DNA from: Chloroflexi bacterium UBA4730
GTDB taxonomy: Bacteria; Chloroflexota; Limnocylindria; P2-11E
Length of the DNA: 64,000 bases
Reading direction: 5' to 3'
NCBI GenBank assembly: GCA_002404155.1
Contig: DHJC01000081.1
Location: 4,520-68,519 of the forward strand
The notes below the pieces were generated by a model, which was given only the letters and a program-made list of their open reading frames with translations, had not been told where the DNA came from and ran no database searches. Made by a program: the position numbers and the translations under genes. Of this stretch, positions 16,228-62,403 are shown piece after piece (within the stretch, counting starts at the first letter, position 1; every line of letters begins with the position of its first letter).

Positions 16228-17688
16228 CTAGGTCCGGGCGTAGCGCTCCGCGAGCGCGACGAGCGTCCTGACCGACGGACCCTGCGGCCCCTTCGGCGAA
16301 TGCGACCGGTCGCGGTCGCTCCAGAAGGTCCCCGCGATGTCGAGGTGCGCCCACTCGGTGCCGTCCTCGACGGCGGCATCGAGGAACGCCGCGGCCTTGA
16401 TCGCGCCGCCCTCACGGCCGGCGCTGTTGGTCAGATCGGCGATGTCGCTCTTGATCTCGTCGCGGTACTCGTCGGTGAGCGGCATCGGCCACAACCGATC
16501 CCCCGCCTCGACGCCGACGCGACGGACCTCGTCGACGAAGGAGTCCGGCTTTCCGAACAGGCCGCTGAAGTGGTTCCCGAGCGCGACGGCGATCGCGCCG
16601 GTCAGCGTCGCGACGTCGACGACCCGCGTCGCGCCTTCGCGCTGCGCGTACGTGATGCCATCCACCAGGACAAGGCGGCCTTCGGCGTCGGTGTTGATGA
16701 CCTCGACGGTCTTGCCACTCATGCTCGTGAACACGTCGCCGGGCTTCGTCGCCCCACCGCCTGGCAGGTTCTCGGTGCACGGAGCGACCGCGATGACGTT
16801 GACCTTTGGCTTGAGCGCGGCGATCGCGGTCATCGCGGCGATGACCGAGGCCGCGCCGGTCATATCGGCCTTCATATGGTGCATGCCCTCGGCAGGCTTG
16901 ATCGAGATGCCGCCGGAGTCGAAGGTGATGCCTTTCCCGACCATCCCAAGGTCGAAGCCCTTGCCGCCGCGGCCGCGGTAGCGAAGAACGATGCACTGCG
17001 GCGGCTCGTGACTGCCCTGCGCGACCGAGAGGTAGCTGAACATCCCGAGGCTCTCGCATTTCTTGCGGTCGAGCACCTCGATGTCCAGGCCGGCCTCCTT
17101 CGCGAGCGCGCGAGCCTCCTGCGCGACGATCGTGGGCGTCATCTTGTTCGCGGGCTCGTTCGCCATGCGGCGGGCGAGGTTCACCGCCTGGCCGACGGCG
17201 TCGCCGCGTCGGATCGCATCGCGGACGTTCCCTTCGGCGACGATGCTCACGGTCGAAAGCGGCGGCAGCCGGCGCTCCTCAGGCTTGCTCCGGTGCGCTT
17301 CGGGCCGCCACATCGCGAAGTGGGCGCCCTCGACCGCGGCTTGAACGGCCCGCGCCTCGCCGATCGTCCCGTCGACGTAGATCGCGGCGGTCTTCGCGTC
17401 GGTCTTCCAGAGCGACTTGATGCCGGCGCTCGCGATGTTCCGGGCGCGCTCGGCGTCGTACTCGGCACGTTTTCCGGCGCCGACGACGACGACACGGCCT
17501 TCCTTGTCCCCGCCCACGTGGGTGAACACGTTGTAGAGGCTCGCGGCGCCGCGCTCTCCGGCAAGACGCTCCACGATCGCGCGCTTGCCGCGCGCGAGAG
17601 ACTTCGGTGCCTGCCTGTCGTCGAACAGCGGGACGATCGTGACGTCGGCCTGGGCCGCGTCGGCCGGGCGAACGGCGCGGAACTTCAT
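16228..17688 (-). CDS. pepA: Leucyl aminopeptidase (M17)
   Basis: 486 aa carrying the M17 signature NTDAEGRLVL and metal ligands. ATG overlaps the selB stop (ATGA). Confidence 0.9.
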   Translation of the reverse strand: MKFRAVRPADAAQADVTIVPLFDDRQAPKSLARGKRAIVERLAGERGAASLYNVFTHVGGDKEGRVVVVGAGKRAEYDAERARNIASAGIKSLWKTDAKTAAIYVDGTIGEARAVQAAVEGAHFAMWRPEAHRSKPEERRLPPLSTVSIVAEGNVRDAIRRGDAVGQAVNLARRMANEPANKMTPTIVAQEARALAKEAGLDIEVLDRKKCESLGMFSYLSVAQGSHEPPQCIVLRYRGRGGKGFDLGMVGKGITFDSGGISIKPAEGMHHMKADMTGAASVIAAMTAIAALKPKVNVIAVAPCTENLPGGGATKPGDVFTSMSGKTVEVINTDAEGRLVLVDGITYAQREGATRVVDVATLTGAIAVALGNHFSGLFGKPDSFVDEVRRVGVEAGDRLWPMPLTDEYRDEIKSDIADLTNSAGREGGAIKAAAFLDAAVEDGTEWAHLDIAGTFWSDRDRSHSPKGPQGPSVRTLVALAERYART

Positions 17689-19631
17689 TGCCTCTCCCCT
17701 TCGTGGCTGCGAGCGCCATGGATCGCGCGATGGAGCTGCTGGTGGCTGGTAGCGGGATCGTGGATGAGGACGCGATCATCGCCCACGCGTCGCGTCAGGC
17801 CATGATCGTCGAGGAATTGTAGCAACGGAAGGACGTGCTTCCGGCTCGATCCGGTGAGATCGCGTGCCTTCGCGACGGTCATCGGGCCATCCTGCAGTGC
17901 GTCGATGATCGCGTCGCCGAATCGTTCGACCGCGTCTGGCAGGAAGACGCCGTCCGTGCCGACCCGGATCAGGTCGCCGCGATCGGCGAGGGCCACCAGG
18001 ACCTCGAGATCGATCCCGTGGTCCCGCCGCAGCGTCACCGCGCTCGGCGGCTGGAGCGGGGCACGCGCCAATGCCGCGCGGGCGCCGGTCCAGCGGGCCT
18101 CTTGCTCCGCGGTGAGCGCCGGCGTGTGCGCTGGCAATGCGAGCGCGCTCCCGCGCTCCGCGATGCGGCCATCCGCGACGAGCCGCGCGACGAGCGCGGC
18201 ATAGCGCTTCGGCGGGAGGTCGAGCGCGCTGCGGACCTCCTCGCGCGACGCGCCGACGCGAAGCGGCGCCTTGCGATGGGCCATCGCGAGCGTGCGCTCG
18301 ACGCGCGTCGCGAGGGTCTCGAACGCCTCGCGCGAGATCGCCGCATCGGCGAGCGGGACGGCGCGGCCCTCGGCGACGAGGGCGGCATATGCGGCATCGC
18401 GCTCCGCCGCATCGAGGCCGCTGCGCTCCCCTGCCTCGGCCGGCGTTCGGGGCGGGTCGAACGAGGCGAGCAGCCGGTCCGCGGCCGAGGGCGCGCTCCG
18501 GCGTTCGAGCGCGGCAACCGCATCGGCTCGGGTGCGGGTCCGTTCGCCCGTCGTGTCCGCGATCACGCCGCCGCCGAGCGTCTCGGATGGCGACGGCCGC
18601 CGGACCACGAGCCGGTCGCCGACCGCGGCCGCGAGCGGCGTCACGAGACGCAGCTGCACCCACCCCGTTTCGCCGGGACCGATCGCGCGACCTTCCAGCA
18701 CCGAGACGCGGGCGATGGCCTCGGCGGTGCCGGCGTGCACCCGGACGGTGTCGTCGTGCTCGAGCGGCCCGCTCACCTCCGCCAGCACTGACAGCCGCAC
18801 ACCGAGCAGCGACGTGGGCCTGAGCGCGCCGGGCTGTACCAGGACCATGCCGCGCGCGAGCGCGTCCTTCTCGATGCCGGCGAGGTTCGCCGCCACGCGC
18901 GAGCCGGCCCGGGCGATCTCGATCGCCCGGCGGTGGGTCTGCAGCCCGCGAATGCGCCCGCGCAGCCCGCCCGGCACGACCTCGACCTCCTCGCCGACGC
19001 GGACCGATCCGTCGACCAGGGTGCCGGTCACGACGGTGCCGAACCCGGTCATCGTGAAGGCGCGATCGATCGGCAGGCGTGGCCGGCCGAGGTCCCGGCG
19101 CGGCGGGGCCGCGCCCAGTACGGACTCGAGCGATGCGAGCAGCTCGTCGAGCCCGCGGCGCGTCGTCGCCGACACCTCGAGGATCGGTGCGTCCGCGAGC
19201 GGGGTCCGTCCGAGCGCCGCGCGCACCTCGGCTCGCACGAGCGCGACCCATTCGTCATCGACCAGGTCACGTTTGCTCAGGGCGACCACGCCGCGGTCCA
19301 CTCCGAGGAGCTCGAGGATCGCGAGATGCTCGCGGGTCTGGGGCATCACGCCCTCGTCGGCCGCCACCACGAGCACCACCGCGTCGATGCCGCCGATCCC
19401 GGCGAGCATGTTGCGGATGAAATCCTGATGGCCGGGCACGTCGACGATGCCGACGTCCGCGCCGCCCGGCAAGGTCAGCCACGCGAAGCCGAGGTCGATG
19501 GTCATGCCCCGCTCTTGTTCCTCGCGAAGCCGGTCGGGGTCGATGCCGGTGAGCGCGCGGATGAGCGTGGACTTTCCGTGATCGACGTGGCCCGCCGTTC
19601 CGACGACACGGATCGGCGCATCGCCGGTCAT
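17685..19631 (-). CDS. selB: Selenocysteine-specific elongation factor SelB
   Basis: 648 aa. N-terminal EF-Tu-like GTPase (GHVDHGKSTL, DVPGH, SKRD) followed by C-terminal winged-helix SECIS-binding domains. Confidence 0.9.
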   Translation of the reverse strand: MTGDAPIRVVGTAGHVDHGKSTLIRALTGIDPDRLREEQERGMTIDLGFAWLTLPGGADVGIVDVPGHQDFIRNMLAGIGGIDAVVLVVAADEGVMPQTREHLAILELLGVDRGVVALSKRDLVDDEWVALVRAEVRAALGRTPLADAPILEVSATTRRGLDELLASLESVLGAAPPRRDLGRPRLPIDRAFTMTGFGTVVTGTLVDGSVRVGEEVEVVPGGLRGRIRGLQTHRRAIEIARAGSRVAANLAGIEKDALARGMVLVQPGALRPTSLLGVRLSVLAEVSGPLEHDDTVRVHAGTAEAIARVSVLEGRAIGPGETGWVQLRLVTPLAAAVGDRLVVRRPSPSETLGGGVIADTTGERTRTRADAVAALERRSAPSAADRLLASFDPPRTPAEAGERSGLDAAERDAAYAALVAEGRAVPLADAAISREAFETLATRVERTLAMAHRKAPLRVGASREEVRSALDLPPKRYAALVARLVADGRIAERGSALALPAHTPALTAEQEARWTGARAALARAPLQPPSAVTLRRDHGIDLEVLVALADRGDLIRVGTDGVFLPDAVERFGDAIIDALQDGPMTVAKARDLTGSSRKHVLPLLQFLDDHGLTRRVGDDRVLIHDPATSHQQLHRAIHGARSHEGERQ

Positions 19632-19764: not shown

Positions 19765-20172
19765 CTACTTCACGCGGATCGCGACGCACTCGATCTCCAC
19801 CCGGAAGCCGCGCGGCAGTGACGCGACCCCGACGGTCGACCGGGCGGGCCGGTGCTCGCCGAACCGTCTCGCGTAGACCTCGTTCATCGCCGCGAAGTCC
19901 GCCATGTCGACGAGGAACACCGTCGTCTTCACCACGTGTGCGAGATCCGACCCGGCCGCGTCCAGCACCGCGGCGAGGTTGTCCAGCGTGCGCTCGGTCT
20001 CCGCCGCGACGTCGCCTCTTCGGTTCTCGCCCGTCGCGGGATCGATGGCACCTTGCCCGGCACAGAACACGAGCTCTCCGGCGACGATCGCCTGGCTGTA
20101 CGGCCCGATGGCCTTCGGTGCGCCGTCGGTCGCGATGCTGCGGATCTCGGTCGGCATATTCGGCCTTTCCAT
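19765..20172 (-). CDS. ridA: RidA/YjgF-family reactive intermediate deaminase
   Basis: 135 aa with typical RidA/YjgF sequence (APKAIGPYSQAI...TTVFL...RSTV). Confidence 0.85.
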   Translation of the reverse strand: MERPNMPTEIRSIATDGAPKAIGPYSQAIVAGELVFCAGQGAIDPATGENRRGDVAAETERTLDNLAAVLDAAGSDLAHVVKTTVFLVDMADFAAMNEVYARRFGEHRPARSTVGVASLPRGFRVEIECVAIRVK

Positions 20173-20174
20173 TC

Positions 20175-21536
20175 CTATGAGGTCCTTCCGCTACGGTCCA
20201 CGAGCGCGCCAATCACGGCGGCTACCAGCGGCTCGTCCTGCTCGGGCAGCACGCTCCGCAGGTCGAGCACGACGCGATCGTCGATGATCCGCGAGATCAC
20301 CGGCGGATCGGCCCTTCGCAGCGCGCCGACGGCGCGCGCCGCGGACGAGGCCGAAAGGGCAACGCCGCGCGACGGCTGGGTCTCCTCGGGCAGCGATCCC
20401 CCGCCGACGGTCGACCTGGTCTCGACCACCGCTGCGGGGATGCCGGCGGCCTCGAGCCGCGCCGCGAGCACCTTCGCGCGCTTCGCGAGCCGGGCGGGTG
20501 TCTCGGCGATCAGCCGCCACACCGGGAGCGTCTCGAGCGCGGTGCCGTCGCGGTAGGCCGCGACCGTCGCCACCAGCGCCGCGATGGTGAGCTTGTCCGG
20601 ACGGAGCGCGCGCATCAGCGGGTGCGTGCGCAGTTTCGCGATCGCCTCGGCACGGCCCGCGACGATGCCGGCCTGCGGCCCGCCGAGCAGCTTGTCCCCG
20701 CTGAAGGTCACCACGTCCGCGCCGTCGCGGATGGCCTCCTGAACGGTCTCCTCGCGTCCGAGACCGAATCGCGCCGTATCGAGCAGCGTGCCGCTCCCGA
20801 GGTCGTGGATGAACGCGACGCCGCGCTCGCGCGCGAGCGTCGAAAGATCCGGTGACGCGGCCTTCGCGACGAAGCCACGCAGCGTGAAGTTGCTCGCGTG
20901 CACGCGGAGAATGGCGCCCGTCTTCTCCGTGATGGCGTTCGCGTAGTCGCGCACATAGGTGCGGTTCGTGGTCCCGACCTCGACGAGCTTGGCGCCGGAC
21001 CGCGTGAGCACGTCGGGGATCCGGAAGCCGCCGCCGATCTCGACGAGCTCGCCGCGCGCGACGATGACCTCGCGCTTGCCCGCGAGTACTGCGAGCGCCA
21101 GCAGGACCGCCGCCGCGCCATTGTTTGCGACGACCGCGTCCTCGGCCCCCGTGACCTCCGCGATGAGGCGCGCGGCGTGGCCGTGCCGCTCGCCGCGCGC
21201 GCCGCGTTCGAGGTCGTACTCGACGCTCACCGTGCCGCTTGCGTCGCGGATCGCTACGAGCGCAGCGTCGGAGAGGGGGGCCCGGCCGAGATTCGTGTGG
21301 AGCACGACGCCGGTCGCGTTGATCACCCGCCGCAGCGTGGGCGCGTCGCCCTTCGCGATCCGGTCGCGGGCGAGCTTCGCGTAGGCGGCGGCATCGAGGA
21401 TCTCGCTGCCGGCCGTGCGGGCGGCCGCGAGGACCTCGCGCACCGCCGTCGTGAGGCGCCTCCGATCGGACAGGTCCTCCGGCGATGCGCGGAGCACGGC
21501 ATCGACCGACGGAACGCGACGTCGTGGATCGGTCAT
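20175..21536 (-). CDS. selA: L-seryl-tRNA(Sec) selenium transferase SelA
   Basis: 453 aa from MTDPRRRVPS.. with the PLP-Lys region FSGDKLLGGPQAG and the SelA N-terminal domain. ATG at 21536 overlaps the upstream stop (ATGA). Confidence 0.9.
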   Translation of the reverse strand: MTDPRRRVPSVDAVLRASPEDLSDRRRLTTAVREVLAAARTAGSEILDAAAYAKLARDRIAKGDAPTLRRVINATGVVLHTNLGRAPLSDAALVAIRDASGTVSVEYDLERGARGERHGHAARLIAEVTGAEDAVVANNGAAAVLLALAVLAGKREVIVARGELVEIGGGFRIPDVLTRSGAKLVEVGTTNRTYVRDYANAITEKTGAILRVHASNFTLRGFVAKAASPDLSTLARERGVAFIHDLGSGTLLDTARFGLGREETVQEAIRDGADVVTFSGDKLLGGPQAGIVAGRAEAIAKLRTHPLMRALRPDKLTIAALVATVAAYRDGTALETLPVWRLIAETPARLAKRAKVLAARLEAAGIPAAVVETRSTVGGGSLPEETQPSRGVALSASSAARAVGALRRADPPVISRIIDDRVVLDLRSVLPEQDEPLVAAVIGALVDRSGRTS

Positions 21537-22423
21537 GCGGTGAGCACCGCGAGCGCGCCTGGACGCACCTTGATCGCGACCTCGCTCGCGTGGATCACCT
21601 CGCCGTCGATCTCGACGGCGACGCGCCGGTCGAGCGCAATGTCGACGGTCCGCGCGCGGATGGCTTGGATCGTCGTGCCGTTGTGGTGCGTGCCGCGATA
21701 CAGCCGCGCGAGCGCGCCGAGGGTCGCGAGCTTTCCGAGCTCCGTGGCGATGGTGAGATCGAGCCACCCGTCATCCAGCGCGGACTTCGGCGCGGGCTGC
21801 ATCCCGCCGCCGAAGTAGCGGCCGTTCGACGCGACCACGATGAGGTGCCGCCCTTCGCGCGATTCGCCGTCGACGGTGATCCGCATCGCTAGCGCCTTGT
21901 ACAGGGCGATCGCGCCGAGCGCGCCGGCGAAATAGCCCAGCGTGGATCCAACGTAGCGCGAGCTGCCCTTCACGCCTTCCGCCACGACCCCGTCGATGCC
22001 TACGCCGGCGGCGTTCACAAAGACCCGTCCGTTGAGCTCACCGACGTCGATCACCCGGCGCCTGGCCTTCGCGAGGAAAGCCGGAACGTCGCGCAACCGC
22101 TTCGGATAGCCCAGGCTGCGCGCGAGGTCGTTCCCGGTGCCGAGCGGATAGAGGCCGAGCGCGGTCGTCGTGCCGACGAGCCCGTTCGCGATCTCGTTCG
22201 CGGTCCCGTCGCCGCCCGCGGCGATGACCGTCGCGTAGCCGTCATCCGACGCCTCCGCCGCCAGGCGCGCGGCCTCGGCCGGTGCCGGGGTGACGAGCAC
22301 CTCGATGTGCATGCCGGCGTCGCGGAACGTCTTCGCGAGGGTCGTCGCGAGGTTCCGCCCCCTTCCGTGCCCGGCCTCGGGGTTGAGGATCGCGATCGCG
22401 CTCGCCGCGCCGTTTTGGCTCAT
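21533..22423 (-). CDS. Diacylglycerol-kinase-family lipid kinase (YegS/DagK-like)
   Basis: 296 aa with DAGK_cat motifs (AILNPEAGHG, AAGGDGT, PLGTGND). Confidence 0.85.
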   Translation of the reverse strand: MSQNGAASAIAILNPEAGHGRGRNLATTLAKTFRDAGMHIEVLVTPAPAEAARLAAEASDDGYATVIAAGGDGTANEIANGLVGTTTALGLYPLGTGNDLARSLGYPKRLRDVPAFLAKARRRVIDVGELNGRVFVNAAGVGIDGVVAEGVKGSSRYVGSTLGYFAGALGAIALYKALAMRITVDGESREGRHLIVVASNGRYFGGGMQPAPKSALDDGWLDLTIATELGKLATLGALARLYRGTHHNGTTIQAIRARTVDIALDRRVAVEIDGEVIHASEVAIKVRPGALAVLTA

Positions 22424-23328: not shown

Positions 23329-23401
23329 GGACCCGTGGCTCAGCGGTTAGAGCACTCGGTTCACATCCGAGGGGTCGCTGGTTCGAATCCAGCCGGGTCC
23401 A
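23329..23401 (+). tRNA. tRNA-Val (anticodon CAC)
   Basis: GGACCCG/CGGGTCC acceptor stem, GCTC-AGCGGTTAG-AGC D arm, CTCGG-TTCACAT-CCGAG anticodon arm, GCTGG-TTCGAAT-CCAGC T arm, discriminator A. CCA not encoded. Confidence 0.85.
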
Positions 23402-24760
23402 CGGAAGGTACCCCTCGGCTTGCCGCGTAGCGGCCCTTCCCGTCGCGAGTCGCGGTCAGGTAGGTGCGCACAGTAGGCGCCGCGATCGCTGCGATCATCC
23501 GCCGCAACTCGGGCCGGATGACGAGCTCCATCCCGTCGTCGGCGAACCGGATCTCGGTCACCAGCGCGTCGATGATCGCCCGGCGCGTCTCGCGGGTCAT
23601 GTCGGGCCACGCGTCGACGACCGCCAGGTAGCGTGCGACGTCGCCGACCGTCGCGTTAATTGCCGGTGCCGTCGCGTCGAGAACCGTCCGGGCCTCGCGT
23701 TTCTCGGTCGCGTAGTCGTCGTCGCTCAGGTCCCCGAGGAGGTACAGCCGGCGCGCACGCTCGAGCCGCGCCTCGGCTACGCGACGCCGCCGCGCTCCGT
23801 CGTCGGCCGCTGGCTTCACCCGGACGAACGCGGCAAGGCGCGTCCGACGATCAGCGTCGAGATGCCACGTCCGCAGCCACGCGACGAACTCCGCCTCGAG
23901 GACCGCCTCGCTGCGTTGGAACGGCGTGCCACAGCCCGGGCGCGAATGCAGCAGCCGGTGATCGATGACGCCATCCGGCCGCGCCGAGCGACGACCCCAG
24001 AGCGGCTGCCCACACGTCGCGTGGCGAGCGCGGGACGTGAAGAGGTAGAGCCCGCGCTCGGCAGGCGTGCCGCGGCGGCCGCGGCGCTCGCGGCGCAGGC
24101 GCTGGATCGCGTCCCAGGTCCGTCGGTCGACGAGCGCGGGCGCGATGCCGGTGCGCTCCTCGCCCTTGCGGCGGGTCACGCCGATGGCAATCGGGTTCTT
24201 GAGGACCTCGAAGACGACGGTCGCGTCGAATGGCCGACCGCGCACCCGATGCGACGGATCGCGGCCTCGTCGTCAACGAGCGCGATCGCCGTTGCGGTCG
24301 CGTCCGACCAGCGGTAGCCCCACGGGAGCGTGCCGCCAGGTAGCCCGAGGCGCGCGAACCTCGCGGCGTAGCCGTCGCGGATCCGGTCGGTGAGGTCGCG
24401 CGAGTACTGCGCGTTGAGCACGTGGAGGATGCCCTTCTGCAGCGCGCCGCGGCGATCGTCGGACCAGATGCCCTCGCGGGCGTAATAGATCCGCGCGCCA
24501 GCGGCGCGGAGCGTGGCCTCGTACGTGAACGCGTCGGCTTCGTTGCGGGCGAACCGCGACGTGTCGTACACGACCAGGACGCTGAACCGGTGCTCACGCG
24601 CGTCGGTGACCATCCGCTGGAAGTCCGATCGCTTGAGTGTGCCGGTGCCGGAGATGAGGTCGGAGTACTCGGCGATGATCTCGAGGTGCAGTTCCGTGGC
24701 GGCGCGCGGGGCAGTCCCGGTGCGGCCGCTCTCGGCGTACGCGATCTTATGAGCGCGCCG
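23402..24760 (-). pseudogene. Large serine recombinase (phage/ICE integrase), frameshifted; reads into tRNA-Val 3' end
   Basis: ORF 24176..25102 carries the resolvase catalytic region (VLVVYDTSRFARN). ORF 23361..24245, in another frame, carries the recombinase domain (VVFEVLKNPIAIGV...) and zinc-ribbon region. The frames overlap by about 70 nt, so there is at least one frameshift. The N-terminal Ser-motif region is also degenerate (IAYAESGRTG). Confidence 0.7.
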
Positions 24761-25203
24761 GCCGCCCCGCTTGCTCCCGACCTCGAACAGGCCCTGAAGC
24801 GCCTGAAGCTCCGCGCGGTGCGGCAGCTCGCACCGGAGGTGCTGCAGACGGCGAAGGTCCAGCGCTGGGCTCCGGAGGAGCTGCTGCGTACGCTGGTCGA
24901 GGCCGAGATCGCCGCGCGCGACCAGGCCAACGAGCGGGCCCCGCTGCGCGTCGCGGCCTTCCCGGTGCGCAAGACCCTCGACGAGTTCAAGGTCCAAGAG
25001 AGCGCGGTGCCGCAGCCGACCTTCGCGTATCTCGCCTCGCTCGAGTGGATCCGGGGGGAGGTCGCGCCGCGTACCGCGCTGATCCGCGACCAGCTGCGGC
25101 AACGACCGGTGGCCTGCTCACGACCTCCGCTGCAGCGACGCTCCGCGTGAAGCCCGACCGCTATCCGCCGGACCGGCCGGCCAGGCGCGTCGGGTAGGGC
25201 TAC

Positions 25204-46765: not shown

Positions 46766-47545
46766 TCAGCGCAGCTGCGCGTTCTCGTCGGGCCGCAGGC
46801 GGGCGCCAGCGAGCTCCTTGCCGCGCAGTCGATAGCTGTCGCCCTTGAGCGAGAGGATCTCGGCGTGGTGCACCAGGCGATCGATCATCGCCGTGGCCAC
46901 GACGTCGTCGCCGAACACCTCGCCCCAGGCCGAGAACGGCTTGTTGCTCGTCATCACCAGCGAGGCCCGCTCATAGCGGCTCGAGACGAGGAGGAACATC
47001 AGGGTGGCGGCCGCGGGATCGAAGGGCACGTACCCGACCTCATCGACGATGACCAGCGGGACCCGGCCGAGCCGCCGCAGCTCCTCGGCGAGCTGTCCGA
47101 GGCGCTGGGCGTCGAGGAGCCGGGCGACCCACTCCGTCGCGGTGGCGAAGGCGACCCGGTGCCCGGCGAGGCAGGCCCGGATCCCAAGCGCGATCGCGAG
47201 GTGGGTCTTCCCGGTGCCGGGCGGGCCGAGCAGCACGACGTTCTCTTTCCCGAGGAGGAAGTCGAGCTGGGCGAGGTGCAGCGCGACCTCTTTCTTCACG
47301 CTCCGCTGGAAGCTCCAGTCGAACTCCTCGAGGGTCTTGCGGCTGGGGAAGCGCGCCGATCGGATCCGCGCGTCGCCGCCGTGGGCCTCGCGCGAGCTGG
47401 TCTCGCTCGCCAGGAGCGCCTCGGCGAAGCGCTCGTATGTCCACTCCTCGGCTCGGGCCCGCTCGGCGAGCTTCGGGAGGGCCCGGGCCGCGGCCGGGGC
47501 CTTGAGCGACCGGAAGCGGTGGGCGAGCTCGGCGGTCTGGGTCAT
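46766..47545 (-). CDS. istB: IS21-family helper ATPase IstB
   Basis: 259 aa with Walker A LLGPPGTGKTHLAIAL and Walker B LVIVDEVGY. Confidence 0.9.
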   Translation of the reverse strand: MTQTAELAHRFRSLKAPAAARALPKLAERARAEEWTYERFAEALLASETSSREAHGGDARIRSARFPSRKTLEEFDWSFQRSVKKEVALHLAQLDFLLGKENVVLLGPPGTGKTHLAIALGIRACLAGHRVAFATATEWVARLLDAQRLGQLAEELRRLGRVPLVIVDEVGYVPFDPAAATLMFLLVSSRYERASLVMTSNKPFSAWGEVFGDDVVATAMIDRLVHHAEILSLKGDSYRLRGKELAGARLRPDENAQLR

Positions 47546-47895
47546 CCGGGGATGAGCGCGTCATATCGCGCAAGGGCCCGCACCTCGACCAGCGGCGGCG
47601 CCGCGCGCCGCTCGCTCAAGATCCGCGCGTGCGCGGGCGCGGTGATCGTGCGATAGCGGGCGAAGGTCCGGAGGTGCCGCGCGACGAGCTCACCGGTGTC
47701 GAGCGCGACGGCAGCGACCTCGCGCGACGAGACGTGCAGCTCGACCCGCCGACCGACGCAGGTTGGATCGAGCGAATAGTCATTGGTGTCGACGCGCGCG
47801 TACGGCTGCGGCGGCACGCGCAGGACCGAGCGCCGGTCGAGGTCCGGGAGCGGCGCGGGCAGCGGCCGGAGCTGCTCGGATGCGTTCCAGGTCAC
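47542..47895 (-). pseudogene. IS21 transposase IstA, C-terminal fragment only
   Basis: A 117-aa ORF overlaps the istB start by 4 nt, as in IS21 istA-istB. Only the IstA C-terminal region is present (~117 of ~400–500 aa). Confidence 0.65.
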
Positions 47896-48169
47896 GCCGG
47901 TTGAGCACGCGATCCACGAGATAACCCTTCTCGACGTCGCGCGCCTTGCACTCTGCCGCGTTCATTGGGCGCAGGACGATGCGGAACGAGCCCACTCGGA
48001 CCCGCAGCCAGGTCCCCTTTCCCTCCAGCGATACGACATCGAGGTTATCGGGCCATGGCTCGGCGCTGAGCTCCTCCATCACAACGCGCTTGATCTCTGC
48101 ACCGACCGGCGTCTTGAGCAGCTTGGCCAAATCCTTCTGCGCAGATGAACTGAGGTCGACTCGGGCCAT
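47780..48169 (-). CDS. RelE/ParE-family type II toxin (3' end fused to or disrupted by the IS21 junction)
   Basis: Toxin core ...GTWLRVRVGSFRIVLRPMNAAECKARDVEKGYLVDRVLNRRDLE. The Ala/Pro-rich tail after ~residue 97 reads into IS sequence. Confidence 0.7.
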   Translation of the reverse strand: MARVDLSSSAQKDLAKLLKTPVGAEIKRVVMEELSAEPWPDNLDVVSLEGKGTWLRVRVGSFRIVLRPMNAAECKARDVEKGYLVDRVLNRRDLERIRAAPAAARAAPGPRPALGPARAAAAVRARRHQ

Positions 48170-48178
48170 TGGGCGTCG

Positions 48179-48490
48179 TTAGCGGCCGCGCTTGGCGGCT
48201 CGTTTCGCCAACTTGCGCGGCCGCGGTTGCGCGTTGAAGAAGGCGCCGGCCTCGATCGTCCGTCCAGCCCGGCTTTCCCGGTCAGCCACCGCTCGACTGC
48301 GCACGAACTCGGGCAGGTGCGCGAGCGCCCAGTCCTCCAGCGCCGACGCCGTGCTCGCCGCATCGAGGGGCACCAGCACAGCCACCGGGTGGCCGGACCG
48401 GGTGATGACCGCTGGACGGCGGGTATCTACCACCCCCGCGACGACCGCACTGGCGCTGCGCCCCAGTTCCTTCACGTTCACCACGCTCAT
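48179..48490 (-). CDS. Phd/YefM-family antitoxin
   Basis: MSVVNVKELGRSASAVVAGVVDTRRPAVITRSGHPVAVLVPLD, the classic Phd/YefM N-terminus. Palindrome GGTACGTACC...GGTACGTA lies just upstream (48500–48540). Confidence 0.8.
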   Translation of the reverse strand: MSVVNVKELGRSASAVVAGVVDTRRPAVITRSGHPVAVLVPLDAASTASALEDWALAHLPEFVRSRAVADRESRAGRTIEAGAFFNAQPRPRKLAKRAAKRGR

Positions 48491-48826
48491 CTCGGCACCT
48501 CCGTCTCGATACGTACCATAGTACATACTCAGGTACGTACCGTCTCGCGGGCCATTCATGGCGGCCCAGGATCCAATGCCCGACTACTGGCTTCGCCAAA
48601 TCCACCGAGACTCGCCATTCCCGCCTTGCCATTTCGGTGCGGCAGTCTTCGCTTCATGCTGCGGCCTGTCCGGTCGCGACCTCCTTTCGAGGTTTCAACG
48701 TGACGCTTCGACGTCGGGGTCTCCCCCTTCGCCGGCCACTTGCTACGGGGCTTCCTGGTCGTTAGCCCGGCGGGACTCACACCCGCCGGTGATCGAGCCC
48801 TTCACAGGGCACACGTGGATTCAGGC

Positions 48827-56946: not shown

Positions 56947-58230
56947 ATGTCGCCCGACACCCAGAAGATCGCGGCGGCGGCACGCCGCGCCCTCAGCGAC
57001 AACCGGCAGTCGGGAACATCGGGCTGGGACGGGAAGCGCTACGACTTCGTCTGCCCGTCCGGGACGACCTATCCCTTCCAGTGGCTGTGGGACAGCGCGT
57101 TCCACGCGATCGCGCTATCGCATGTCGATCCCGCTCTGGCGAAGCAGGAGCTGCGGTGTCTATTGCAAGGTGCGCAGCCGGACGGGTTCATCCCGCACAT
57201 GCTCCTGTGGGAGAAGAACGCGCACGAGGCGGCGCTCCGCGAGTACTCCATCACCTTGCTGCACCCGTACTTCACCTCGATCACCCAGCCGCCGGTGCTC
57301 GCGCGCGCGATCGAGCGGGTCTACGAGGCCTCCGGTGACGTCGGGTTCCTTCGCGACGTCCTGCCGCCGACGCTCCGGTTCTTCCGCTGGTTGAAGGCGC
57401 AGCGCGACCCGGATGACGACGCGCTCATCGCCACGATCCAGCCGGATGAGTCGGGGCTCGACGCGAGCCCGAAGTACGACGCTGCCATGGGTGTGCCGTG
57501 GGACCCGCCCGAGGCGACTCTCCCCGCGCTGACCCGCTCCATGGACCGGCTCTTCGCGGAGTACGAGCCTCTGCGCGGCGATCCGGCGCGGATCCTCTCG
57601 CTCGATCGGTTCGTGTGGGAGGACGTCATGGTGAACACGATCTACGCCGACGGTCTCCGCCGGCTCGGGCCGCTCTGCCGCGCCGCCGGCTACCCCGAGG
57701 CCGAGGCGCGCGAGTTCGAGGATCGCGCGACGCGCGTCCGGTCGGCGCTCGAGACGAAGTGCTGGGACGAGAAGGCCGGCGTGTTTTGGGATCTCTCGGG
57801 GTGGCGCGAGGAACCGGCCCGCACGCTCACCTTCTCGTCCCTGTTCCCGCTCGTGCTCGCCGACCTCGACCCGCGAAAGGCCGCCCGGCTCATCGACGAG
57901 CACCTGTTGAACGAGCGCGAATTCTGGCTCCCCTACCCGATCCCAAGCACCGCGGCATCCGAGCCGACCTTCGACCCGGGGTGGCGAACGAAGACGACCT
58001 GGCGTGGTCCGACCTGGGTCGCGATCAACTGGTACCTCTACTGGGGCCTGCGTGAACACGGCAGAGCGGACATCGCCACCGAGCTCGCGCGGCGGACGTT
58101 CGAGATGGTCGAGCGCGCTGGCATGCGCGAATTCTTCGACCCGCGCACCGGCGCCGGCGAGGGAGCATCGAGCTTCGGCATGTCGACGCTCGTCCTCGAT
58201 CTCATCGCGGCAGAGCACCTTCCGTCGTGA
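56947..58230 (+). CDS. GH63/GDE_C-like (alpha/alpha)6-barrel glycoside hydrolase (glucosyl-/mannosylglycerate hydrolase-like)
   Basis: 427 aa with YPFQWLWDSAFHAI and TTWRGPTWVAINWYLYWGL motifs typical of GH63/trehalase-like catalytic domains. Divergent from the sugar ABC operon. Confidence 0.75.
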   Translation: MSPDTQKIAAAARRALSDNRQSGTSGWDGKRYDFVCPSGTTYPFQWLWDSAFHAIALSHVDPALAKQELRCLLQGAQPDGFIPHMLLWEKNAHEAALREYSITLLHPYFTSITQPPVLARAIERVYEASGDVGFLRDVLPPTLRFFRWLKAQRDPDDDALIATIQPDESGLDASPKYDAAMGVPWDPPEATLPALTRSMDRLFAEYEPLRGDPARILSLDRFVWEDVMVNTIYADGLRRLGPLCRAAGYPEAEAREFEDRATRVRSALETKCWDEKAGVFWDLSGWREEPARTLTFSSLFPLVLADLDPRKAARLIDEHLLNEREFWLPYPIPSTAASEPTFDPGWRTKTTWRGPTWVAINWYLYWGLREHGRADIATELARRTFEMVERAGMREFFDPRTGAGEGASSFGMSTLVLDLIAAEHLPS

Positions 58231-58637
58231 CAGCGCGGACGGCAGCCGCCCGAGACCCGGCGCCATCGTTCTCGACGACGTTCGCGGAGGTGCGCTGATG
58301 CTCGGCCGGCTGCGTCACAGCTCGCACCTGCGGATCCACCCCGCGACGTGGCTGCAGGGCGGTCGCGCCAGCACGGGCACAGGCCCCGGTCCTGCTCCAG
58401 GCCGGTCGTGGGCTGGTTGATCTTGACGACACCTGCCTGGATCCGGTCGTCGTGTCGACACTCATGCCGCGCGCGGCGGCCCGTTCCGCGCGGTCGAGGA
58501 TCGTCGCCTCCTCGTCGAGCGTGGAGTGCTCGGTCTCATCGGTTCGTGTCACGATCCAACCTCCGGTGATCGCAACTCTCGCAGCCTCCTCCCCGAACGC
58601 TTAGCGGGGCTCGATGGGCCCGGGGTGGCCGCTCGTC

Positions 58638-59177
58638 TTACGGCTCGTACGTGTGCATCGACTCGATGCCGAACGCGCGGTTGAAGCGCGCCCGGTAGTT
58701 CTCCATGGCGATGGAGCCGGCGAGCTCGACGATCTGGGCGTCGGTGAAGTGAGCCCGCACGGCGTTGAAGACGGCGTCGGTCACGTCGGCCGGCGTCGCG
58801 CTCATCGCTTCGGCCAGGGCGAGCGCCGCCCGCTCGGGCTCGTCGAAGAGCCCGCTGTCGCGCCACCCGCCTACCGCGGCGATCTTCTCCGCGGAGGCGC
58901 CACCCCGGCTGCTCCCGGCAGCGTTCGTGTCCATTCAGAAGGGGCAGCGGACCATCTGCGCCGCGCGCAGCTGCACGAGCCCGCGGAGCTGGGCGCTGAG
59001 CTTCCCGCTCTTCGCGGGGGCCGCCCCGAGCGCCCGGCTCGCCTCGAGGATCGGCGGACAGTGGGCCTGGATGCCCACAGAGTCGAGGGTCCGGCCGAAG
59101 GTCTTCGCCGATTGCTCCAGGATCGGCCGCACCTCGGGCGGCGCTTCGTCGGTGGTCAGCGGACGGAGGCGCGGCAT
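58638..59177 (-). CDS. AhpD/carboxymuconolactone-decarboxylase-family selenoprotein candidate (in-frame UGA at 58935–58937; CPFU replaces the family CxxC)
   Basis: ORF 58935..59285 (true start ATG 59177 with RBS AGGGAGA) and ORF 58638..58934 are the same frame, separated only by TGA: ...[21 protein letters not shown]...[22 protein letters not shown]... The CMD-family consensus here is AQINGCAYCIDMH. A GCUGC-CGGGA-GCAGC hairpin lies 12 nt after the UGA. selA and selB are in the same window. Confidence 0.65.
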
Positions 59178-59282
59178 CTTTGCTTCTCCCTTTCGCCGAA
59201 GTGGTCGATGGGAGCGTAGACCGCGAAGGCGCCGCCCGCCCCGCTGTACAGCAGCACGCACGTCCAGACCTCCAATCCGACA

Positions 59283-59584
59283 CATGGCCGAGCGCCGATG
59301 AGCTGCGCCAGATCTACTCGACCAAGGGCCTCGATGGCGCTGAGGGAACGATCGCGTACTGCCGCATCGGCGAACGAAGCTCGCACACCTGGTTCGTCCT
59401 GAAGTACGTCCTCGGTCAGGAGAAGATCCGGAACTACGACGGGAGCTGGATCGAGTACGGCAGCCCCATCGTCGCGCCGATCGAGAAAGGGACGTGCCGG
59501 GTGAGCCTCCTTGAGCACGTCACGCGTTCCGGCGCGTGCCACCGGCATGGCTCTTGGCTGGAGGTGACGGTTACGATGCACTGA
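59283..59584 (+). pseudogene. Rhodanese (SseA-like sulfurtransferase) C-terminal fragment
   Basis: Only the last ~95 aa are present (...[25 protein letters not shown]...[13 protein letters not shown]...). The fragment begins exactly at the selenoprotein gene start; no in-frame N-terminal domain. Confidence 0.5.
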
Positions 59585-59742
59585 TGCAGCGCCGGCATCG
59601 CGATTGGCCACGCGGGCGGGTCACGCCGCGTCTCCGCCGCCTGTGCGATCGTGGCGCGCGCTGCGTCGGCGGTCTCAGCGCCTGTTCGAGGTAGTCGCGA
59701 CCTGATCCCGCGTCCCTCGACTATGGCGCTGGAGCTTTTGGA

Positions 59743-60459
59743 ATGTTCGCATCCGCTGCCACCCCGATCGTACGCCGCGCCGACCCGTACCACGACACCG
59801 ACATCATCGACGCGCGCGCCCCGCGGTTCAACCAGACCATCGTCGCGACCGTCTCGCTCCTCGCCGTCGGGCTCGGCTGGTGGCCGCTGCTCGGCGTCCT
59901 TGCGGCCCAGCTCGCCCTCGGGCTGCGCTTCGGCCGCCGCTACTGCGTGCCCTGCGTGCTGTACTTCGAGCTCGTGCAGCCGCGGTTCGGCGAAGGACCA
60001 CTCGAGGACTCCCGGCCGCCACGGTTCGCGAATCTCCTCGGCGCGATCTTCCTTGGCGCCGCGACACTCGCCTACGCGCTGGGATCAACCGCGATCGGTG
60101 CCACCCTGGGCCTCATCGTCGCGGCGCTCGCGACCCTCGCGGCGACCACCGGCCGCTGCGTCGGCTGCGAGCTGTACAAGATCGACGCGCGCATCCGCGG
60201 GATCCGCTCGCACGTGCTCGATCGGATCGACCCCGGCGATCTGGACACCACCGTCGCCAGGGCGATCGTCGAGTTCACCCATCCGCTCTGCACCGAGTGC
60301 CAGAGGCTCGCTCGCGATCTCGAGGGGCGCGGGGAGCGGGTCCTCACGATCGACGTGTCCCGTCGGCCCGAGCTCGCCCGGAAGTACGGCATCGCGGTCG
60401 TGCCGGTCGCGGTCCGTATCGAAGGCGATGGGCGGGTCGTGGAGCGCATCGCCGGCTAG
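59743..60459 (+). CDS. Membrane-domain (DUF4395-like, CxxC-containing) protein fused to C-terminal thioredoxin-fold domain
   Basis: N-terminal hydrophobic region with CVPC and CVGC. C-terminal IVEFTHPLCTECQRLARDLEG...IAVVPVAVRIEGDGRVVERIAG, thioredoxin-like with CxxC. Confidence 0.7.
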   Translation: MFASAATPIVRRADPYHDTDIIDARAPRFNQTIVATVSLLAVGLGWWPLLGVLAAQLALGLRFGRRYCVPCVLYFELVQPRFGEGPLEDSRPPRFANLLGAIFLGAATLAYALGSTAIGATLGLIVAALATLAATTGRCVGCELYKIDARIRGIRSHVLDRIDPGDLDTTVARAIVEFTHPLCTECQRLARDLEGRGERVLTIDVSRRPELARKYGIAVVPVAVRIEGDGRVVERIAG

Positions 60460-60464
60460 CTGAG

Positions 60465-60860
60465 GTCTCCATAGATCTGGGACACACGCCACCGGTCTAG
60501 CCAGTCCAGCGGCGCGAGGCCTCCGAGGGCGATGTGCGGACGCTCGGCGTTGTAGTCGGCGACGAAGAGCGCGACGGCAAGGTCGCGCTCGGCTTCGGCA
60601 TGGAACGTCTGGCTGAACAGGCACTCGCCGCTCCTCGGGCGTCAGCGTCGCCTCGTCGAGCTGTGTCTGCCGAAAGCCGGCCCCGAGACGCCTTAGGAAC
60701 TTCTTGATCTTCCGGAGGTCCATACGGACACCGCGAAGACGCGCGACGAGTTGAAGGTCGCTGCTGAGTAGTTCCTCCGTCTCCCACTCGTCCGCGATGC
60801 GCTTGCCGGAAGCATCGCCGAGCTCATTCAAACGGCCGAGGAACGTCCTGCCGGAGCTCG
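60465..60860 (-). pseudogene. DDE (rve/IS481–IS3-type) transposase remnant with large internal deletion
   Basis: C-terminal ...FHAEAERDLAVALFVADYNAERPHIALGGLAPLDWL... and a separate N-terminal HTH-like piece (...LSSDLQLVARLRGVRMDLRKIKKFLRRLGAG...) in different frames. Catalytic core missing. Confidence 0.5.
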
Positions 60861-60980
60861 GCGGGCTTCGGCGTCGGTCATGCGAGGTTGTGAATAGACG
60901 AACGTTCTCGACGCTGACTATGTCGGTCGGCCCGGTGGGCAGCGTCGAGTTGGGACTGCAGCTTCTCGGAGTTGCTTCAC

Positions 60981-61190
60981 GCGCTGACCTCGAGCCAGCG
61001 GGCGTGCTCGGCGGCGGATAGTTCATCGACGACAGCGCAGGGGTCTGTCGCACCGGCCCGAATCCAGCCGGGCCACGGAAGTTAGGGCAACGTCCCATCA
61101 CGGAAGTTAGGGCAACGTCCCATCGCTGACTGTGAGTCATCTGAGCAATGGTTTGCCAGACCATTGCTCTACCAGCTGAGCTACCTCGGC
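60981..61190. repeat. Composite att scar: partial arm repeat, tRNA-Val 3'-end-like core (61059–61081, 1-nt deletion), 25-bp tandem direct repeat (61074–61098, 61099–61123), and a tRNA 5' fragment on the minus strand (61142–61190)
   Basis: cgaatccagccggg-ccacggaag matches tRNA-Val 23384–23407. cacggaagttagggcaacgtcccat occurs twice in tandem. Minus strand GCCGAGGTAGCTCAGCTGGTAGAGCA-ATGGT-CTGGCAA-ACCAT has acceptor, D and anticodon arms but no T arm. Confidence 0.55.
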
Positions 61191-61233
61191 GAGTGTCGGC
61201 CGCAATTTCAGAAGTCGCGTCGAGAGCCGCCAG

Positions 61234-62403
61234 CTACAGGTCGGCTCCCAGCTCGCGAGGCGGAAGGACGCGCACGAAGTATTCGCGACCGAGCATCTCG
61301 TGGAGCATCGATTGAGGGAAGAGCTCGGGCTGGATCGGGAATTGCGTGCGGTGGGCCGCGATCGCGCGGATCTTCTGGTCCACGTGCGCGGACACATCGA
61401 TGGCGGTCGTCGGCTGCTCCCCCGGCCAGTCGGCACGCTCCACGTCGGCCGGATCAGTCAGCGACGCTGCGGGACCACGTCCAGTGAACAGGGTCGGCGC
61501 CGCAGGTGAGAAGACCAGGCACGTCACCGCGTCGACGGCGATCACATGAGCGGAGCGTGGCTGCTCGTACACGAGCGCAAGCTCGCCGAAGAACTCGCCC
61601 GGACCGAGATGTCGCAGCGTGCGAAGCTCGCCCGGTGTGGGCTCCTCAGCCACCTGCGCCGCTCCCGAGACGATGAGGAACAGGCTCTTTCCGACCTCGC
61701 CCTGCTCGACGATGTACGTCCCGGCCGGGAACCAGCGGACCTCGATGAAGTCCCCGGCGTAGCGCAGCGTCGTCGATTCCTCGGCGAACAGGGACAGCGA
61801 CCGAACGAACTCCGGACCGCCGCGAAACCGGGCCTCGAGCGAGACGAGCCATCGCGCGAGCCGGTCGAGCATGAGCAGTCGACTGCGAGCGAAGTGGCTG
61901 TGGTACAGACGCGCCGCTCCGTGGGGTCGCCCGTACGTGTCCGTCCCGTCATATGCGAGCGTGAACGCTCGCCTCGTAGCCGCGCTGATGGTCACGTGAT
62001 CCGGATGGCCGTACGCACCGTCCTCGCCGAACGTGATGACGACGTTGGGCTGGAAGTCCCCGATGGCGTCGGCGACCGAGCGGACGAGCACATCGAAGTC
62101 GGCCTCCTGGAGCCGGCCATCGATGTAGTCATGGCAGACGACGTGCTGGACGCCCAGGATCGCGCACGCTCGTCGCAGCTCCTGTTCGCGGACGGAACCG
62201 AGCGTGTGGCGGGTGGCGGCACGCGCATCGCGGATCTGACCCGCTTGGCCACGGGTCGCGGACAGCACCATGGCCTCGGCACCTCGGGCGGCATACTTCG
62301 CCAAGGTCCCTCCGGCGACGAACACCTCGTCGTCAGGATGGGCGAAGACCCCGAGGATGCGCATCCGGTCCGTCGACGCGTCGCCGTTCGGCGCCAAAGC
62401 CAT
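61234..62403 (-). CDS. PIG-L/LmbE-family N-acetylglucosaminyl deacetylase with an embedded cyclic-nucleotide-binding (CAP-type) domain
   Basis: N-terminus ILGVFAHPDDEVFVAGGTLAKY...HPDH (PIG-L metal site). Residues ~220–320 resemble a CAP-family cNMP-binding domain (GTYIVEQGEVGKSLFLIVSGAAQV...GPGEFFGELALV). C-terminal LmbE segment (KIRAIAAHRTQF). Confidence 0.75.
   Translation of the reverse strand: MALAPNGDASTDRMRILGVFAHPDDEVFVAGGTLAKYAARGAEAMVLSATRGQAGQIRDARAATRHTLGSVREQELRRACAILGVQHVVCHDYIDGRLQEADFDVLVRSVADAIGDFQPNVVITFGEDGAYGHPDHVTISAATRRAFTLAYDGTDTYGRPHGAARLYHSHFARSRLLMLDRLARWLVSLEARFRGGPEFVRSLSLFAEESTTLRYAGDFIEVRWFPAGTYIVEQGEVGKSLFLIVSGAAQVAEEPTPGELRTLRHLGPGEFFGELALVYEQPRSAHVIAVDAVTCLVFSPAAPTLFTGRGPAASLTDPADVERADWPGEQPTTAIDVSAHVDQKIRAIAAHRTQFPIQPELFPQSMLHEMLGREYFVRVLPPRELGADL

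Follow-up and report, generated by a model that had tools for sequence, protein, structure and literature searches.

Selenoproteins with a CxxU motif in the AhpD-like group were described in 2005 from the Sargasso Sea by Zhang et al. (PMC1088965), who reported both AhpD-like proteins (COG2128/TIGR01926) and CMD-domain proteins with this motif. In the GOS data of 2008 (PMC2398784), the AhpD-like 1 family was abundant, with 299 selenocysteine (Sec) sequences and 902 Cys homologues, and the AhpD-like selenoprotein family is listed in a 2026 review (PMC13188914) and in BSepDB. In AhpD itself the redox motif is part of a proton relay, Glu...CxxC...His, the Glu and His of which are Glu36 and His55 in the numbering of PA0269 (PMC3141380).

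We analyzed a 64-kb stretch of DNA from a Chloroflexota genome (64,000 nucleotides, hereafter the window), in which two ORFs of the minus strand, 58935..59285 and 58638..58934, lie in the same frame with only the TGA 58937-58935 between them. The preliminary description of this DNA had noted this arrangement and had proposed that the two ORFs are one gene for a CxxU selenoprotein, and both the sequence and the ORF list bear the arrangement out. Our analysis makes it very probable that the locus is a single gene for a 179-residue AhpD-like (CMD-superfamily, YciW-related) thiol/selenol oxidoreductase, in which the UGA at codon 81 is recoded to selenocysteine. The window protein shares with the AhpD-like CxxU family the CMD/AhpD fold, a length of about 180 aa and Sec at the second position of CxxC, and in both cases the wider family includes Cys homologues and the UGA is immediately followed by a small SECIS hairpin. 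That is, the window gene is an unannotated new member of a selenoprotein family known since 2005, and the novelty implied by the preliminary description does not hold (PMC1088965). The features of the locus and of the Sec machinery are collected in Table 1.

Table 1. Features of the candidate selenoprotein gene and of the selenocysteine machinery in the window
Feature	Position	Strand	Basis or remark
AhpD-like/CMD-family candidate selenoprotein gene	58638..59177	-	179 codons and TAA (58640-58638); motif C78-P-F-U81
In-frame UGA, predicted selenocysteine codon (residue 81)	58935..58937	-	Conservation and CxxC alignment
Predicted bacterial SECIS core hairpin	58908..58922	-	5-bp stem GCUGC/GCAGC, 5-nt apical loop CGGGA
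Putative Shine-Dalgarno-like GGGAG	59186..59190	-	8 nt 5' of ATG 59177; suggested by direct reading
selB, selenocysteine-specific elongation factor	17685..19631	-	GTP_EFTU, domain 2, SelB beta-barrel, SelB winged-helix 2 and 3
selA, L-seryl-tRNA(Sec) selenium transferase	20175..21767 (ORF limits)	-	PF03841 SelA, E 2e-128, profile 1-366/367

The true start of the gene is most likely ATG 59177 rather than ATG 59285, because the product then opens with MPRLRPL, as the database homologues open with MPRIRPL, because a GGGAG lies 8 nt upstream, and because the GC3 value falls upstream of about 59177. Over 180 nt on each side of the TGA, the GC3 value was 0.95 (before) and 0.93 (after). In a six-frame scan of the 64 kb, this was the sole TGA flanked by a coding signature both upstream and downstream. 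A scan for promoter and terminator consensus sequences around the gene found nothing.

The joined protein matched the Pfam CMD family (PF02627) with an E-value of 1.4e-12 and a score of 47.9 bits, where the cut-off is 23. Of the two halves taken alone, the N-terminal one gave no Pfam match, and the C-terminal one reached 17.2 bits on the same model, under the cut-off. The AlphaFold model of the joined protein, built from a 24-sequence alignment, was all-helical (pLDDT 95.5, pTM 0.90). When this model was compared with the PDB by Foldseek, the matches at E ≤ 0.001 were AhpD-like proteins only, with query-normalised TM-scores of 0.69-0.85; they include Bmp8 (6ohi), D. radiodurans AhpD (6k40), 2prr, PA0269 (2ijc/2o4d) and Atu0492 (2gmy). 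For 6k40, 6ohi, 2prr and 2ijc the TM-scores are 0.72-0.85. The claim that the two ORFs together reconstitute a CMD/AhpD protein is thus supported, since only the joined protein passes the Pfam cut-off and its predicted fold is AhpD-like.

The position of the TGA in this fold agrees with the earlier proposal that it stands at the second redox Cys of the family. In the alignments to PDB homologues with CxxC, the stretch MVRCPF[U]MDTN of the window protein faces INGCAFCVDMH of 2gmy and INGCAYCVNMH of PA0269, so that the TGA stands opposite the second Cys. In the AlphaFold model, C78 lies in the turn preceding the helix 83-91. The motif CPFU[M/I]D[T/S]N and the helix ENYRARFNR are conserved in the clade to which the window protein belongs.

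In order to clarify whether the TGA is a property of this one contig or of the family, we compared the locus with its relatives. A scan with one genome per species gave 413 relatives, and the best 80 of them were fetched for the comparison of the TGA and of the sequence that follows it. The TGA stood at the aligned codon in 80/80 of these best 80 of 413 relatives, at identities of 39-80% and in at least eight phyla. The groups represented in the best 80 of 413 are Chloroflexota, Alphaproteobacteria, Acidobacteriota, Binatia, Deltaproteobacteria/Thermodesulfobacteriota, Rokubacteria/Methylomirabilota, Verrucomicrobiia and Planctomycetota, and the best match was a Ca. Limnocylindria MAG (Chloroflexota) with 80% identity. 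In the relatives where the read stretch reached the next stop, the frame runs on for 96-116 codons after the TGA. The residue after the TGA varies among the relatives, being M, I, L, V, A or Q.

A protein search gave a corresponding picture. Its results include over 100 clusters, 98-115 residues long, that begin exactly at the residue following the TGA, and most of the named ones come from Chloroflexota or Dehalococcoidia MAGs; a small number of entries are full-length and show W, R or C at the Sec site. When the C-terminal half was used as the query of an exhaustive HMMER search, 1949 cluster representatives were returned at E ≤ 0.001, and the top 150 were examined. Among these top 150 of 1949, 76 begin at or after the Sec site; the other 74 are longer, and in about 50 of them the aligned residues read CxxC. 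The TGA loci and their distant CxxC relatives thus form the classical Sec/Cys pair. The comparison with homologues for which the preliminary description had called gave TGA in 80/80 loci (best 80 of 413) and Cys in the more distant homologues.

These data bear on the possibility that the gene is really split, that is, that translation stops at the UGA and re-initiates at the adjoining AUG, giving polypeptides of 80 aa and 98 aa that form one CMD fold. An ATG does follow the TGA in the window and in many Chloroflexota relatives, and gene callers report the 98-aa ORF. In other relatives, however, the codon after the TGA is ATT/ATC/ATA, CTC/CTG, GCG, GTG or CAG, which are mostly not start codons, and a Shine-Dalgarno motif is absent before the post-TGA codon. 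Moreover, the break would hit the catalytic residue exactly and remove it. Since the residue after the TGA varies in this way, termination and re-initiation cannot explain the family, and we regard a split gene as very improbable for the window locus.

A read-through that needs no selenium would also give a full-length product, by a near-cognate or suppressor tRNA (Trp, Cys, Arg) or by a lineage-wide reassignment of UGA. It could draw on the W found at the Sec site in public database translations and on the genuine Arg and Cys variants. When two of the full-length W entries (loci L001 and L004) were checked at the DNA level, the codon was TGA in both; the W is a table-4 style translation, and we rejected the Trp homologues as sense-codon relatives. 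The two Trp versions checked come from short contigs on which genes were called with a table that reads TGA as Trp. The related proteins in public metagenome protein sets that show Trp at this site are P0001-P0005 and P0017. The genuine sense variants are one Arg entry (CGG, locus L089) and one Cys entry (P0012, TGC, with the motif SPFCMD). In the window itself, TGA is the stop codon of 17/24 other Pfam-supported genes, and therefore UGA is not generally reassigned. The presence of selA and selB and the location of the TGA at the redox Cys position, a typical place for Sec, also speak against a selenium-free read-through, to which we assign only a very small chance.

The Arg variants form a sub-clade (P0006-P0010, P0013, P0016 and the locus L089) with the motif C-[PEA]-F-R, the codon in L089 being CGG. 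Some 9 residues downstream, the members of this sub-clade have a further Cys (…AAC/VAC/ATC/ANC…), which may be a redox residue relocated after the loss of Sec.

We then consider the RNA that follows the UGA. The hairpin GCUGC CGGGA GCAGC, which had been proposed as a bacterial SECIS 12 nt 3' of the UGA, was confirmed in sequence and in position (58922-58908): there are 12 nt from the UGA to the stem, which starts 13 nt after the UGA, and the loop begins 17 nt after the UGA. According to the bSECIS model (PMC13188914), the apical loop has 3-9 nt with a G in its first two positions, the upper stem has 4-16 bp, the distance from the UGA to the loop is 16-37 nt, and the minimum free energy is -7.5 kcal/mol or lower. 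The window hairpin has this geometry (a loop of 5 nt with G at position 2, a stem of 5 bp and a spacing of 17 nt), and its energy in context, -7.4 kcal/mol, is borderline against the threshold, with a pairing probability of about 1.6%. The 48-nt region prefers another, GC-rich structure of -16.3 kcal/mol, which is not conserved in the related locus L006. Folding of the hairpin region showed no signal against shuffled window sequence (z = 0.25), and no match to an Rfam SECIS family was found in 58000-62000, even at E-values up to 10. Because the fold of the window sequence alone is weak, we take the support for the hairpin from the comparison of genomes and not from thermodynamics.

In this comparison, which covers the window and the best 80 of 413 relatives, a hairpin was present at the same offset in 81/81 sequences. 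The register of a 5-bp stem and a 5-nt loop was found in 50/81, and a register of a 6-bp stem and a 4-nt loop in 28/81, with unrelated stems such as GCAUCC/GGAUGC, GCGUC/GACGC and UCAUUCC/GGAAUGA; in the other 3/81 the hairpin is shifted by one position. The 81 hairpins fall in three classes of stem sequence. In the first class, the pair 16:30 is GC in 28 sequences, AU in 9, UA in 3, UG in 3 and CG in 2, and the pair 15:31 is CG in 18 and UA in 16. The covariation score was reached by 0/500 shuffles, and every slid register scores lower. Furthermore, column 18, a synonymous third codon position, is T in 46/46 sequences, including the window with its GC3 of about 0.93, and the two Ser codons after it are nearly always AGC-AGY. 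The invariant T and these Ser codons are therefore a pointer to selection on the RNA. In the one example of each that was compared, the Arg homologue (CGG) and the Cys homologue (TGC) were both without a tight hairpin. Thus the proposal of a bacterial SECIS stands as regards geometry, conserved position and covariation, but the hairpin by itself folds no better than shuffled sequence.

That the TGA is a nonsense mutation or a sequencing or assembly error inactivating an ordinary CxxC AhpD-like gene, for which one could cite the single base that separates TGA from TGC or TGT, the existence of Cys homologues and the decay of the locus seen in the adjoining rhodanese remnant, is effectively refuted by the TGA at the same codon in 80/80 independent genomes across phyla (best 80 of 413) and by the covariation of the hairpin conserved after it, the coding signature after the TGA also being intact and the C-terminal half strongly conserved, and it is the least probable of the readings considered here.

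The machinery for decoding UGA as Sec is partly encoded in the same window. The preliminary description had stated that SelA and SelB are present, and full-length Pfam matches agree with this (Table 1); the true start of selA is probably downstream of the ORF limit. Between selA and selB lies an ORF of about 140 codons (19765-20190, minus strand) with a GC3 of 0.89 and no Pfam match. No selC (tRNA-Sec) was found in the 64 kb by ARAGORN or by Rfam at the gathering threshold, nor in 17-24 kb by Rfam at an E-value threshold, and no selD was found among the Pfam-scanned ORFs of the 64-kb window. A tRNA-like 5' half at 61099-61190 (minus strand), with acceptor, D and anticodon arms, scored 30.5 bits on the Rfam tRNA model and was not called by ARAGORN. 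It was considered as tRNA-Sec and rejected, as it is a 5' fragment whose anticodon loop is CUGGCAA. Two perfect tandem copies of 25 nt come after it at 61074-61124, and the whole (61074-61190) could be the attachment-site scar of an integrated element.

Taken together, the conserved TGA, its place at the second Cys, the hairpin and the presence of selA and selB support the candidate CxxU selenoprotein. On the recoding reading, we infer that the gene works as follows. SelB with Sec-tRNA(Sec) would be recruited by the stem-loop within the coding sequence, 13 nt after the UGA; Sec81 would be inserted, and translation would run on to the TAA (58640-58638). The redox centre of the product would be C78-x-x-U81. 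If the protein behaves like the CxxC AhpD-like proteins, its U81 selenolate would attack an oxidised substrate or partner, for which disulfides, sulfenic acids, hydroperoxides and other electrophiles come into question. Cys78 would resolve the intermediate by forming the selenenylsulfide U81-C78, which a cellular thiol reductant would then reduce.

To clarify where the window protein stands in its superfamily, we compared it with the described families. On TIGR01926 (peroxidase-related enzyme), it scored 54.3 bits against a cut-off of 81.8 (E 1.3e-14, positions 1-173/178), and because this score is under the cut-off we place it in a diverged clade. With NF053654 ('GroundWater_YciW', a YciW-related (seleno)protein) it shares its length and end-to-end homology (positions 1-175/179, E 9e-34). 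It reached 116.7 bits against the equivalog cut-off of 310, however, so that it falls outside the equivalog, and nine relatives tested gave 108-174 bits. As these scores are under the cut-off, the NCBI pipeline would not name the clade from this model. It is consistent with such scores that NCBI records of MAGs split the gene into pieces of 80 aa and 98-101 aa. The expectation that gene callers would report two fragments is thus realized in the public records, with pieces of 80 aa and roughly 98 aa.

As to structure, the window protein is predicted to share the all-helical fold of M. tuberculosis AhpD, PA0269 (2o4d/2ijc) and D. radiodurans AhpD (6k40). The query-normalised TM-score was 0.72 against 2ijc/2o4d and 0.85 against 6k40, and the redox motif lies on the same helix-turn-helix element. 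The structure of M. tuberculosis AhpD was a poor match to the model, with an E-value above 0.3. The best Foldseek E-value, 4e-7 with a TM-score of 0.82, was obtained with the tetrabromopyrrole debrominase Bmp8 (6ohi/6ohj). In sequence, Bmp8 matches over residues 6-169 with E 6e-8, and its C-x-x-C is aligned to C78/U81. The identity is only 20%, however, no bmp gene context is present at the window locus, and the likeness is no better than that to generic AhpD-like proteins.

A difference from AhpD concerns the proton relay. In the alignment, the positions of Glu36 and His55 of PA0269 are occupied by Gly66 and Asn85 in the window protein; that is, the Glu...CxxC...His relay of bona fide AhpD is absent from it. 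An AhpD-type function is therefore uncertain, and we conclude that the window protein is AhpD-like in fold and redox motif and is not a bona fide AhpD. The His at +4 is missing from most of this subfamily, many Cys forms included. That Sec might allow the protein to do without the His/Glu relay was considered and dropped as a Sec-specific feature, since most Cys forms of the subfamily are likewise without the His at +4. No peroxiredoxin match that would indicate ahpC was found among ten ORFs scanned across 50-64 kb, and in the relatives whose loci were examined the neighbouring genes are unrelated to ahpC.

The preliminary description had placed the gene in a redox/selenium neighbourhood, with a truncated rhodanese next to it and a thioredoxin fusion just downstream. 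Both genes are present, but they lie on the upstream side of the selenoprotein gene and on the other strand. The match of the rhodanese ORF (59180-59584, plus strand), which is divergent from the selenoprotein gene, to the 277-residue thiosulfate sulfurtransferases is confined to residues 202-276 of these (3aax, E 5e-27). The remnant of this two-domain enzyme at 59267-59584 (plus strand) comprises the last ~75/277 residues and keeps the active-site loop CRIGERS, its 5' two-thirds being missing. The loss of these two-thirds, with the opposite-strand selenoprotein gene at the breakpoint, suggests an insertion or rearrangement at this locus. The gene at 59743-60459 (plus strand) is a DUF4395 domain (E 9e-28) fused to a C-terminal thioredoxin-like domain with the motif CTEC, and its thioredoxin match is weak (PF00085, E 1e-4, just under the cut-off). 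In the relatives examined, the neighbours differ from one another and are unrelated to those in the window; no conserved gene context that hints at a function was found there. The neighbourhood is thus not a conserved linkage, and because the neighbours of the relatives differ we read the rhodanese/DUF4395 context as a coincidence or the scar of a rearrangement, not as a module.

Elsewhere in the window, there are signs of mobile elements at 46766-48788, namely a group II intron D1-D4 RNA (48654-48788, minus strand; RF02003, 91.6 bits) and an IS21 IstB-like ATPase (46766-47545, minus strand), and the GC content falls to 0.65 at 48-50 kb. A tRNA-Val(CAC) at 23329-23402 adjoins an ORF for a serine recombinase (Resolvase) at 24176-25102, and the region 23329-25102 may be an integrated element.

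One could go further and regard the clade with the motif CPFU[M/I]D as a distinct, almost Sec-only YciW/AhpD-like lineage that is without the Glu/His relay and may act on a substrate other than AhpC. On this reading, it appears to have been passed on horizontally as a stand-alone gene between Chloroflexota, Alphaproteobacteria, Acidobacteriota and Binatia of soil and groundwater. The Sec-only part of this reading rests on the TGA in 80/80 loci (best 80 of 413), down to 39% identity; as a whole, we think that the reading is improbable. By analogy, one possibility for the function is that the protein would be a selenol-dependent reductase of small electrophiles, akin to the Bmp8 debrominase.

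If the reading as a distinct lineage were true, the current annotation models would systematically miss the CPFU[M/I]D clade. Public MAGs show the window gene and hundreds of its relatives either as two fragments, labelled hypothetical or "CMD family", or with a Trp at the active site that is spurious, and therefore the selenoproteome counts are too low for Chloroflexota and for other soil and groundwater phyla. A CxxU AhpD-like selenoprotein is to be expected in a genome with selA and selB, and the main value of the present finding is a correction of annotation.
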